In this document: positions 1,241 to 3,361 of the stretch, piece by piece
How the letters are laid out: each line of letters starts with the position of its first letter
Position numbering within the stretch: position 1 is the first letter of the stretch
Sequence record: PZ195121.1
From: a phage
DNA: 3,361 nt
Reading direction: 5' to 3' (one strand)
Position numbers and translations under genes: made by a program
The notes under the pieces: generated by a model
Database searches by the model: none
What the model saw: only the letters and a program-made list of their open reading frames with translations
What the model was told of the DNA's origin: nothing

Positions 1241-1633
1241 ATGGCAACTTTACGCAGTTTTGTACTCGTCGATAATGGCGGTACGGGGAATGTTACTGTC
1301 GTTCCTGTTAGCAATGCCAACGGCGTCGCTGAGTGGCTTTCTAATAACTCGCGCAGTCAAGCTTATCGCGTGACTGCCAGTTATCGTGCGTCAGGCGCGG
1401 ACAAGCGCAAATACACCATCAAACTTGAAGTGCCGAAGATCGTCACTCAAGTTGTAAACGGTGTTGAGCTGCCTGTTTCCGCATGGAAGGCTTACGCCTC
1501 TATTGACCTGACCATCCCTATCTTTGCTGCAACCGACGATGTGACCGTTATTTCCAAGTCACTCGCTGGTCTGTTCAAAGTTGGGAACCCTATCGCTGAC
1601 GCCATCTCTTCTCAGAGTGGCTTCTACGCATAA
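1241..1633 (+). CDS. cp: Coat (capsid) protein, levivirus group II (GA-like)
   Basis: 130-aa ORF, MATLRSFVLVDNGGTGNVTVVPVSNANGVAEWLSNNSRSQAYRVTASYRASGADKRKY...TIPIFAATDD...GNPIADAISSQSGFYA. Shows the conserved levivirus coat signature (FVLVDNGGTG, NGVAEWLS.NSRSQAY, ELTIPIF-like, GNPI) and is near-identical to my recollection of the phage GA coat protein. Single TAA stop with a second stop 2 codons downstream, so no read-through extension. Confidence 0.95.
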   Translation: MATLRSFVLVDNGGTGNVTVVPVSNANGVAEWLSNNSRSQAYRVTASYRASGADKRKYTIKLEVPKIVTQVVNGVELPVSAWKAYASIDLTIPIFAATDDVTVISKSLAGLFKVGNPIADAISSQSGFYA

Positions 1634-1824
1634 TGGGTCTGAAAGCAAAACATAAGGAAAACCTATGTTCCGATTCACAGAGGTCGAAAAGACTCTATGT
1701 ATGGATCGCACTCGCGATTGTGCTGTCCGATTTCACGTCTATCTTCAGTCATTGGATTTGGGGTCTTCTGATCCTCATTCTCCAGACTTTGATGGACTTG
1801 CCTACCTTCGTGATGAATGTTTAA
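1633..1824 (+). CDS. lys: Lysis protein (L-type single-gene lysis protein), overlapping coat stop and replicase start in a third frame
   Basis: 63-aa ORF whose ATG overlaps the coat stop (UAAUG at 1631-1635). Basic N-terminal region (KAKHKENL...RSKR) followed by a hydrophobic helix-like segment (LYVWIALAIVLSDFTSIFSHWIWGLLILILQTL) that contains an LS dipeptide, as in MS2 L. Position and size match the known lysis gene of group II leviviruses. Confidence 0.8.
   Translation: MGLKAKHKENLCSDSQRSKRLYVWIALAIVLSDFTSIFSHWIWGLLILILQTLMDLPTFVMNV
1649..1669 (+). promoter_or_regulatory. Coat-protein-binding translational operator hairpin at the replicase start (also the likely packaging signal)
   Basis: AACAUAAGGAAAACCUAUGUU folds as stem 1649-1653/1665-1669, bulged A1654, stem 1655-1657/1662-1664, tetraloop AAAA 1658-1661. 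The replicase AUG (1665-1667) is in the 3' arm and the SD (AGGA, 1655-1658) is in the stem/loop. Architecture matches the MS2/GA operator (bulged purine plus 4-nt A-rich loop). Confidence 0.85.
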
Positions 1825-3263
1825 CTAAACACCCCTCACTTGGAGACAGTAATTCGGACGCACGCCGTAAGGAATTGGCATATGCCAAACTTATGGATAG
1901 TGATCAAAGATGCAAAATCCAAAACAGTAACGGATACGACTACTCTCATATCGAGAGTGGCGTACTGAGTGGTATACTCAAGACCGCTCAGGCCCTTGTG
2001 GCGAACTTGCTTACGGGTTTTGAATCTCACTTCCTGAACGATTGTTCATTCTCCAATGGAGCCTCACAAGGGTTCAAGTTGCGGGATGCAGCGCCGTTTA
2101 AGAAGATCGCTGGGCAAGCAACCGTTACAGCTCCTGCTTATGACATTGCCGTGGCCGCCGTTAAAACGTGCGCACCGTGGTATGCTTATATGCAGGAAAC
2201 GTATGGCGATGAGACCAAATGGTTTCGTCGGGTATACGGCAACGGTTTGTTTTCTGTTCCGAAGAACAATAAAATAGATCGGGCTGCCTGTAAGGAGCCT
2301 GATATGAATATGTACCTTCAGAAAGGGGCGGGTTCTTTTATAAGAAAACGCCTTCGTTCTGTCGGTATAGATCTTAACGATCAAACGTGCAATCAGGAAT
2401 TAGCCCGACTTGGCAGCATTGATGGTTCACTTGCTACTATTGATCTTAGTAGCGCTAGTGATTCTATCTCTGACCGCCTCGTCTGGGATTTACTTCCACC
2501 GCACGTTTATTCATACCTCGCTCGTATTCGTTCGTCTTTCACTATGATCGACGGACGGTTACACAAGTGGGGTCTATTTTCTACCATGGGCAATGGCTTT
2601 ACATTCGAACTCGAGTCCATGATCTTTTGGGCTCTAAGTAAGAGTGTTATGCTATCCATGGGTGTTACTGGCTCATTAGGCATCTACGGTGATGATATAA
2701 TCGTCCCCGTTGAGTGTGCCCCGACCCTCCTTAAGGTACTATCCGCCGTAAACTTTCTTCCAAATGAAAAGAAGACGTTTATAACGGGTTACTTTCGTGA
2801 GAGTTGTGGTGCTCATTTCTTTAAAGGTGCCGACATGAAACCTTTTTACTGCAAGCGGCCAATGGAAACCCTTCCCGATGTCATGTTGCTTTGCAACAGG
2901 ATAAGGGGTTGGCAGACCGTTGGTGGAATGTCAGATCCGCGGCTCTTTCCTATTTGGAAGGAGTTCGCTGATATGATTCCGCCGAAGTTTAAGGGTGGAT
3001 GTAACCTAGATCGCGACACTTACCTCGTTTCGCCGGATAAACCCGGTGATACATTGGTTCGTATCGCTAAGGTACGCTCTGGTTTTAACCATGCGTTCCC
3101 GTACGGTCATGAAAGTGGCCGTTACGTCCATTGGTTACATATGGGATCGGGAGAAGTTCTCGAGACCATATCCTCCGCCAGGTTCAGGTGCAAACCTAAC
3201 TCGGAATGGAGAACACAGATCCCTCTATTTCCACAGGAATTAGAGGCCTGCGTTCTCTCCTGA
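1665..3263 (+). CDS. rep: RNA-dependent RNA polymerase (replicase beta subunit)
   Basis: 532-aa ORF. Catalytic YGDD motif (LGIYGDDIIVP; GDD codons at 2688-2696, in frame). Last and largest gene in canonical levivirus order. Tandem stops UGA-UAG at 3261-3266. Confidence 0.95.
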   Translation: MFRFTEVEKTLCMDRTRDCAVRFHVYLQSLDLGSSDPHSPDFDGLAYLRDECLTKHPSLGDSNSDARRKELAYAKLMDSDQRCKIQNSNGYDYSHIESGVLSGILKTAQALVANLLTGFESHFLNDCSFSNGASQGFKLRDAAPFKKIAGQATVTAPAYDIAVAAVKTCAPWYAYMQETYGDETKWFRRVYGNGLFSVPKNNKIDRAACKEPDMNMYLQKGAGSFIRKRLRSVGIDLNDQTCNQELARLGSIDGSLATIDLSSASDSISDRLVWDLLPPHVYSYLARIRSSFTMIDGRLHKWGLFSTMGNGFTFELESMIFWALSKSVMLSMGVTGSLGIYGDDIIVPVECAPTLLKVLSAVNFLPNEKKTFITGYFRESCGAHFFKGADMKPFYCKRPMETLPDVMLLCNRIRGWQTVGGMSDPRLFPIWKEFADMIPPKFKGGCNLDRDTYLVSPDKPGDTLVRIAKVRSGFNHAFPYGHESGRYVHWLHMGSGEVLETISSARFRCKPNSEWRTQIPLFPQELEACVLS

Positions 3264-3361
3264 TAGTATCAGGACCTCCCCGGACGGGGTGGGTGTGACC
3301 GAAAGGCCACTATGGAGGTGAATCCTCCACCGCCCAAAAGGCGGTTATCGGTGACTAGTTT
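3264..3361 (+). other. 3' untranslated region (probably truncated) with multiple stable stem-loops
   Basis: Seen in sequence: hairpins CCUGA(3259-3263)/UCAGG(3269-3273) enclosing the replicase stop, CCCC(3278-3281)/GGGG(3286-3289) with loop GGAC, GGAGG(3314-3318)/CCUCC(3324-3328), and ACCGCC(3329-3334)/GGCGGU(3340-3345) with loop CAAAA. Window ends ...GACUAGUUU rather than the ...CCCA 3' terminus expected for leviviruses. Confidence 0.6.

Follow-up and report, generated by a model that had tools for sequence, protein, structure and literature searches.

The one-base coat-lysis overlap of a group II F-specific RNA phage genome and the control region around it

In the phage genome considered here three reading frames meet within a few tens of nucleotides: the coat gene ends, the lysis AUG shares the final A of the coat stop codon, and the replicase gene begins shortly downstream in the remaining frame. 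The question raised by this locus is how ribosomes are apportioned among these products, and in particular whether the lysis gene is read only by ribosomes that have just finished the coat gene. A second question is how much of the surrounding RNA takes part in this control. The whole stretch that was analysed, 3361 nt in length and hereafter called the window, aligns end-to-end with the group II F-specific RNA coliphages, and the junction could accordingly be compared base for base with that of well-studied relatives.

Genome identity and the layout of the junction

Over 100% of the window the nucleotide identity is 95.9% to BZ13 DL20, 94.9% to DL10, 94.4% to GA and approximately 85% to T72 and KU1, all five of which are assigned to Emesvirus japonicum. 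The window is a group II (GA/BZ13-type) F-specific levivirus of this species. It corresponds to positions 78-3438 of the 3458 positions of DL20 and is, hence, a near-complete genome without the extreme ends. An exact look-up of its replicase protein in a large assembly collection gave no match, and the strain is, hence, not represented there. Its genes follow the group II order, maturation-coat-lysis-replicase, and comprise the 390, 130, 63 and 532 codons typical of that group. All four open reading frames pass the respective Pfam gathering scores:

52-1224: maturation gene, from the list of open reading frames; Pfam Phage_mat-A above the gathering score
1241-1633, + strand: coat gene, 130 codons plus UAA; Pfam Levi_coat, 132 bits
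1633-1824, + strand: lysis gene, 63 aa; Pfam Phage_MS2_lysis (PF11125)
1665-3263, + strand: replicase gene (RNA-dependent RNA polymerase beta subunit), 532 aa; Pfam RNA_replicase_B, 728 bits

At the amino acid level the coat protein shares 98% identity with that of GA and 62% with that of MS2, and it matches the solved GA capsid (PDB 1GAV and 1UNA). It differs from its GA counterpart at three residues (T59, V79 and a D in the window; A, G and E in GA).

The nucleotides 1625-1633 read UAC GCA UAA. The coat stop codon UAA (1631-1633) and the lysis AUG (1633-1635) share a single A, which is the one-base overlap that the original prediction had placed here. The replicase AUG (1665-1667) lies, as was also claimed, 32 nt past the lysis AUG (1665-1633) and in a third frame: the start coordinates modulo 3 are 2 for coat, 1 for lysis and 0 for replicase. 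Upstream, the lysis frame is closed by an in-frame UGA at 1597, past which the AUG at 1633 is the first start codon. The original prediction rightly called this arrangement known among group II leviviruses. In the GA record (X03869) the coat, lysis and replicase genes are annotated at 1325-1717, 1717-1908 and 1749-3347, i.e. with the layout of the window at an offset of +84, and the records of DL20 and DL10 carry the same gene layout. The arrangement has thus been annotated in GA since that phage was sequenced and has been tested there experimentally.

GA shares with the window the UAAUG overlap, the 32-nt spacing, the use of three frames, a lysis protein of 63 aa and the operator sequence. 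The window is a distinct strain (94.4% identical), with A1630 in the place of the G that precedes the stop codon in GA. The stretch 1631-1677 is identical in the window, GA, DL10 and DL20. The difference nearest to the junction is A1630 itself, which is a G in all three of these relatives and turns the last sense codon from GCG into GCA; this substitution could slightly alter the efficiency of reinitiation. The pentamer TAATG as such is not enriched in the window, with five matches on both strands as against 6.7 expected from the shuffled sequence. Therefore, the significance of the junction lies in its placement and conservation, rather than in the motif.

Lysis start and coat termination

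Two features of the RNA bear directly on how ribosomes reach the lysis frame:

1631-1635, + strand: UAAUG overlap of coat stop and lysis start, the putative termination-reinitiation site; read from the sequence, identical in GA, DL10 and DL20
1587-1638, + strand: irregular 'lysis hairpin' from the predicted fold, with an apical hairpin at 1601-1621

The lysis start overlaps the stop codon and is devoid of a Shine-Dalgarno sequence (SD). The duplex energy with the anti-SD is -2.7 kcal/mol at the lysis start, as against -9.5 at the maturation start, -6.1 at the coat start and -6.2 kcal/mol at the replicase start. An SD upstream of the lysis AUG, when looked for by this duplex energy, is absent: the value falls at the 41st percentile of the start-like triplets of the window. 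In addition, the predicted lysis hairpin buries the coat stop codon and the G of the lysis AUG in its 3' arm, and A1633 and U1634 are left unpaired. The closing stem pairs ACCC at 1588-1590(91) with GGGU at 1635-1638, and UAU at 1591-1593 with AUA at 1630-1632. The fold of 1583-1642 has an energy of -19.1 kcal/mol (z -2.39) and its pairs recur in a 590-nt fold. The seven group II sequences compared all retain the ACCC:GGGU stem and the apical hairpin. Compensatory changes in this hairpin were sought among the same seven sequences and none was found, there being too little variation among them. The GA record marks the apical stem-loop as of 'pot. function in lysis gene control'. On the predicted structure, ribosomes could not complete the coat gene without opening the hairpin 1587-1638.

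The dependence of lysis expression on coat translation has been addressed with lacZ reporters fused to the lysis frame of GA. According to the published account (PMC9955659), the change of the coat AUG to AUU abolishes expression, and the change of UAAUG to UAAUA lowers lysis-frame expression from 24.7% to 0.4% of upstream reading. The same account puts the share of upstream ribosomes that reinitiate on the lysis frame at approximately 25%, and states, citing Inokuchi et al. 2000, that no sequence was found by deletion and substitution analysis that permits coat-independent lysis expression (PMC9955659). In these constructs the sequence past the junction had been altered, and the native efficiency may differ from 25% (PMC9955659). 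The original prediction that lysis is coupled to coat termination is, hence, supported both by these reporters of GA, which in its native form is identical to the window over 1631-1677, and by the lack of an SD here. By analogy with GA, translation of the lysis frame in the present strain is probably carried out by ribosomes that have finished the coat gene at UAAUG. Stop/start overlaps of this kind are also seen in bacterial operons such as trpB-trpA (cited in PMC9955659), where the downstream gene is likewise read by upstream ribosomes. Most operon junctions, however, retain a downstream SD, such that independent initiation is possible; here there is none, and the coupling would be obligatory.

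The position of the lysis start varies considerably among relatives. With distances counted between the first bases of the two codons, coat stop and lysis start, it lies at -47 in MS2, -5 in the uncultured phage AVE017, +2 in the GA-type phages, +3 in the metagenomic contig L039 (a GUG) and +20 in KU1 (a UUG). MS2 (group I, Emesvirus zinderi) resembles the window in having a homologous lysis protein with an SD-less start dependent on coat termination; it differs in that L starts 47 nt upstream of the coat stop, giving a 50-nt overlap of the two genes, and in that L has 75 aa. KU1, T72 and four environmental contigs have 18 nt between UAA and UG, which creates the UUG start at +20. Of these, KU1 and the BZ13 strain T72 belong to the same species as the window, with which they share the operator sequence and 97% amino acid identity in the lysis protein; they differ from it in this insert and in their UUG start, 20 nt past the first base of the stop. 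A 1996 paper by Groeneveld et al. reportedly bears a title that agrees with a UUG lysis start of the KU1 type. Pairing between the first 7 nt of the 18-nt insert and the final 7 nt of the coat gene leaves the stop codon in a triloop. The insert is also present in contig L014, which nonetheless reads UAAUG again at the insert's end. A neighbour-joining tree was used to ask if this UAAUG is ancestral or reverted; it places L014 inside the KU1-type clade, without a clear basal placement. L039 reads UAAGUG and has a 60-aa L-like open reading frame from the GUG at +3, while AVE017 has an unannotated 63-aa L-like open reading frame, with the start AUGGCUAA, at -5. The SD energies at the lysis starts of the KU1-type genomes, L014, L039, AVE017 and MS2 are all weak (-2.2 to -4.0 kcal/mol), and a lineage of contigs (L011-L013) has an AGGAG before a 70-aa L-like open reading frame at +15. 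Thus, the lysis start moves freely around the coat stop, mostly still without an SD, a spread that fits a mechanism for which a start codon close to where the ribosome terminates is sufficient.

The same spread bears on how the terminated ribosome reaches the start codon. One account, the scanning model, holds that the post-termination 70S or 30S particle is never released and shifts along the RNA, up- or downstream by a few nucleotides, until it encounters a start codon. Such sliding could tolerate the range of lysis starts seen, which precede or follow the coat stop (-47 to +20) and are AUG, GUG or UUG, and initiation of MS2 lysis has been called 'ribosomal scanning and re-initiation' (PMC9894550). 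Further, in the published GA reporters, starts up to 4 nt downstream served equally well, and upstream starts served less well with distance. Set against this, Inokuchi et al. read their data on temperature-sensitive ribosome recycling factor (RRF) as release followed by rebinding; with RRF inactive, ribosomes read on in all three frames, not only from the AUG. We consider sliding without release a serious candidate for this step, albeit not the likelier one.

It is far less likely that free ribosomes use the lysis AUG as the hairpin breathes, with the gene being read irrespective of the coat gene and the one-base overlap reflecting genome compaction only. The hairpin is admittedly modest at -19.1 kcal/mol, with A1633 and U1634 predicted to be unpaired, and the related L011-L013 lineage has its own AGGAG for a lysis-like frame 15 nt past the coat stop. 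However, the SD energy of -2.7 kcal/mol at the lysis start is no better than that of the median start-like triplet, and removal of the upstream start in the GA reporters abolished expression (PMC9955659).

An older model for MS2 has lysis activated by ribosomes that frameshift while reading the coat protein and end at out-of-frame stop codons close to the lysis start, instead of at the coat stop. The window does have such a stop, UGA at 1597-1599, which is in the lysis frame and 34 nt upstream of the AUG, and this model would likewise make lysis expression depend on coat translation. Nevertheless, two later accounts (PMC11339067 and PMC9894550, both citing Berkhout et al. 1987) attribute the activation in MS2 to coat termination, and a coupling of approximately 25%, as reported for the GA reporters, is far above plausible rates of spontaneous frameshifting. 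We regard this model as highly improbable for the present junction, and return to reinitiation by ribosomes that have terminated at the coat UAA as the preferred reading.

The lysis frame as a gene

The product of the lysis frame scores 29.3 bits against PF11125 (cut-off 25). At the amino acid level it is 97-98% identical to its counterparts in GA, DL10, DL20, T72 and KU1, i.e. it is conserved to this degree even between genomes that are only approximately 85% identical in nucleotides. It is 38% identical to MS2 L, the sequence of which was verified from V00642 for the alignment, and shares with it the core LYV.I.LAI.LS.FT. Its N-terminus is basic, with a net charge of +4 over residues 1-20, and its hydropathy profile has two hydrophobic stretches with peaks at residues 20-30 and 40-47. 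The LS dipeptide occupies residues 31-32. On these sequence features the 63-aa protein would be classed as an L-like (type II) single-gene lysis protein. The KU1 Sgl, a 97% identical homologue, lyses E. coli when expressed from pBAD24, and does so without blocking peptidoglycan synthesis (PMC10614894).

Selection on the lysis frame is also visible in the gene that overlaps it. In the overlap the third codon position of the replicase frame is the second codon position of the lysis frame. Among six genomes, the replicase third-codon positions that vary number 4 of 53 within the lysis overlap and 216 of 480 outside it (Fisher p = 1.5e-8), and wobble variability in the overlap is the lowest of all 53-codon windows of the replicase gene. 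Therefore, a second constraint must act on this stretch. The obvious candidate is the protein encoded in the other frame, with RNA structure as an alternative.

That the 63 codons are merely an open frame that arose by chance, as might be suggested by their small number and by the TAATG pentamer not being over-represented, is hardly credible and is already refuted by the Pfam match above threshold, the 97-98% conservation, the wobble suppression that is confined to the overlap and lowest there, and the lysis of cells by the KU1 homologue.

Replicase operator, a predicted long-range pairing and a proposed control scheme

Three further features lie around the start of the replicase gene or pair with its vicinity:

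1649-1669, + strand: replicase translational operator hairpin, predicted to bind coat protein; from folds, conservation and covariation
1336-1341, + strand: GCUUUC, coat codons 32-34, 5' strand of a predicted long-range pairing; from the minimum free energy (MFE) fold
1641-1646, + strand: GAAAGC, between the lysis AUG and the operator, 3' strand of the same pairing; from the MFE fold, invariant in group II

The operator hairpin has the MS2-type architecture, i.e. a 7-bp stem, a bulged purine at -10, a 4-nt loop and the AUG in the 3' arm. Its core stem is formed by 1651-1654/1664-1667 and 1656-1657/1662-1663, which the fold extends by two A-U pairs (1649-1650/1668-1669). The bulged base is A1655 (-10) and the loop is AAAA at 1658-1661 (-7 to -4). 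Within the hairpin lie both the replicase SD, AAGGA at 1654-1658, and the AUG at 1665-1667. It is present in every predicted fold and invariant in all group II sequences compared. In an alignment of six Emesvirus lineages (the window, KU1, MS2, the uncultured phage AVE017 and the metagenomic L039 and L013), 97.6% of the cells are paired, as against 9-52% in register-slid controls. The operator covaries: compensatory changes are found in two pairs, A-U versus G-C at -11/-1 and G-C versus U-A at -8/-3, and the bulged A and the loop A residues at -7 and -4 are invariant across the six lineages. Thus, MS2 has the same bulged A at -10 and the same A residues at -7 and -4; it differs in the loop, which is AUUA in MS2 and AAAA in the window, and in the -11/-1 pair, which is G-C in MS2 and A-U in the window.

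A permissive-threshold Rfam scan of the whole window recovered nothing but a sub-threshold match to the MS2 operator (RF02359), which scores 18.1 bits (gathering score 40) and covers model positions 16-36 of 36. The RF02359 model is built on MS2-like sequences and their flanks; the alignment of the hairpin itself is free of gaps. The GA record marks the operator hairpin as 'pot. binding site coat protein'. The coat protein of the window keeps V29, T45, S47, R49, K57, T59, K61 and Y85, the RNA-contact positions of MS2, and has a Ser, as does GA, in the place of Asn87 of MS2. By analogy with MS2, the coat protein of this strain would bind the operator and repress the replicase, in keeping with the coat-mediated repression in the original prediction. 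Separately, an exact 18-mer scan of a metagenome collection with the operator sequence gave 31 loci, only three of which (L014, L039 and L043) are in leviviruses; the others have no similarity to the window.

The long-range pairing was absent from the original prediction. In the MFE fold of 1241-1830 the segment 1336-1341 is paired with 1641-1646, i.e. coat codons 32-34 are joined to the stretch that directly precedes the operator. The Min Jou pair of MS2 joins 1427-1433 (coat codons ~31-33) to 1738-1744, just 5' of the operator, and makes the replicase site inaccessible as long as the coat gene is not being translated (PMC11339067). In duplex scans of the window, KU1, MS2, L039 and AVE017 a complement turns up at coat nt ~91-96, and complementarity between coat codons ~31-34 and the segment 5' of the operator is, hence, common to MS2 and the window. 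The sequence of the pair differs with the lineage: the partners are GCUUUC/GAAAGC in the window and UGAAUGG/CCAUUCA, the known pair, in MS2, with equivalent complements of 7 bp in KU1 and, as AGUGGUU/AACCACU, likewise of 7 bp in L039. By itself a 6-bp complement is weak evidence, and the scan holds higher-scoring alternative duplexes; covariation of the pairing, looked for within group II, met with no informative variation there. We nevertheless consider the pairing 1336-1341/1641-1646 a likely homologue of the Min Jou interaction of MS2, by analogy with which it may act here.

Since this long-range pairing and the upstream hairpin belong to it, the control region is not confined to approximately 35 nt. 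The original prediction's estimate of about that much control sequence was in this respect too small: the hairpin 1587-1638 and the predicted pairing with coat codons 32-34 have to be included.

Taken together, we hold with considerable confidence that the best explanation of 1631-1667 is that it forms the central translational control junction of a GA/BZ13-type phage. Under this explanation, free ribosomes would load on the coat gene alone. Ribosomes reading the coat gene would melt the 1336-1341/1641-1646 pairing, thereby exposing the replicase ribosome-binding site, and would also melt the hairpin 1587-1638 in which the end of the coat gene is buried. After termination at UAA (1631-1633) a fraction of them would re-engage the AUG at 1633-1635, which, being devoid of an SD, could not recruit free ribosomes, and these re-engaged ribosomes would make the 63-aa membrane lysis protein. 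Because only a fraction of the terminating ribosomes would re-engage, the lysis protein would be made in a small, constant proportion to the coat protein, and lysis would have to wait until much coat protein is present. Finally, accumulating coat dimers would bind the hairpin 1649-1669 and shut off replicase synthesis. The 'timed lysis' that had been claimed for the junction would follow from this chain of events; the sequence itself does not show timing.

A further layer of control is conceivable, given that the operator hairpin follows the lysis AUG at a distance of only 16-18 nt. A ribosome on UAAUG would abut that hairpin with its leading edge and would cover the 3' strand of the long-range pairing. 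Coat dimers on the operator might, hence, serve as a roadblock or clamp and alter the share of terminating ribosomes that reinitiate on the lysis frame. The GA reporters worked with a disrupted operator, which indicates that the hairpin is not needed for the coupling, although it might still modulate it. We regard such a roadblock as doubtful. If it did operate, coat concentration, beyond the rate of coat translation, would set the timing of lysis in group II phages, and the starts at -47, -5, +2, +3 and +20 in the relatives would be different settings of the timer.

To return to the junction as a center of translational control, what the window adds is one more natural strain in which it is unchanged base for base, and its value lies in confirmation alone. 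The UAAUG junction of GA also serves as a model for bacterial ribosome recycling and reinitiation. For the phage itself, the junction is a textbook case of a 3.4-kb RNA genome scheduling three proteins through overlapping signals: the coat protein would be made freely, the lysis protein as a fixed fraction of it, and the replicase would be switched on by coat translation and off by the coat protein.

The window's ends and its coat residues

The following stretches of the window are considered here:
1-51 and 3264-3361: terminal stretches
1415-1417 and 1475-1477: codons of coat residues 59 and 79 (mature protein numbering)

The first base of the window corresponds to position 78 of DL20, the closest BZ13 strain, and its last base lies 20 nt short of the DL20 3' end. 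As it thus begins and ends inside the DL20-equivalent genome, the window lacks the terminal structures required for replication. Within the coat protein, the window, KU1 and MS2 share Thr59 and Val79, in contrast to Ala59 and Gly79 in the GA record; in the MS2 coat, residue 59 belongs to the RNA-contact positions.

The KU1-type insert and its hairpin

The KU1-type junction is characterized by an 18-nt insert after the coat stop and a UUG lysis start. The relevant features are:
KU1 (L005), 1708-1740: KU1-type junction element, also present in L004, L007, L008, L010 and L043
L014 (OGVH01001890.1), about 375-400: junction of a KU1-type contig with the insert present

The first seven nucleotides of the insert, GGCGUAG, are exactly complementary to CUACGCC, the final 7 nt of the KU1-type coat gene, and hence the two form a 7-bp hairpin with the coat stop UAA in its triloop. 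In the predicted fold, the UUG start is buried by a closing stem, which CAGC at the end of the insert lengthens. The predicted folding energy of the whole element is -31.4 kcal/mol for the KU1-type, as against -19.1 kcal/mol for the GA-type, in which coat stop and lysis start overlap as UAAUG. L014 has CAGUAAUGGG in place of the CAGCAUUGGG of the remaining KU1-type sequences, a reading that makes the start codon AUG and creates a second UAAUG; the UAA of this second site is in frame with the coat gene and lies 18 nt past the real coat stop. This junction could represent either an intermediate between the GA- and KU1-types or a reversion; a neighbour-joining tree including L014 favours neither.

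Lysis starts in divergent relatives

Open reading frames (ORFs) resembling the MS2 lysis protein L (L-like) are found next to the coat stop in further leviviruses:
L039 (OGVK01001857.1), 1772-1957: L-like ORF of a divergent levivirus
ssRNA phage AVE017 (L048, NC_073941.1), 1754-1945: 63-aa L-like ORF (…AVSAICLSKYINQ…)
L013, 1649-1876: example from the L011-L013 lineage of IMG/VR contigs (57% coat identity)

At the nucleotide level, L039 is about 68% identical to the window, and its nearest record is AVE017 at 76.5%; it shares with the window, without any change, the 18-nt sequence of the operator, the putative coat-binding hairpin at the replicase start. Its coat stop is adjoined by GUG (UAAGUG), which opens a 60-aa L-like ORF with an N-terminal part similar to group II L and a C-terminal part similar to MS2 L. 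The AVE017 record annotates only the maturation, coat and replicase genes; its L-like ORF, with an AUG 5 nt ahead of the coat stop (AUGGCUAA) and no Shine-Dalgarno (SD) sequence, is probably an unannotated lysis gene. In the L011-L013 contigs the L-like ORF is 70 aa long and includes an LS motif. Since this ORF is preceded by AGGAG and starts 15 nt past the coat stop (counted from the stop's first base), the lysis gene of this lineage may have an initiation of its own and not depend on reinitiation.
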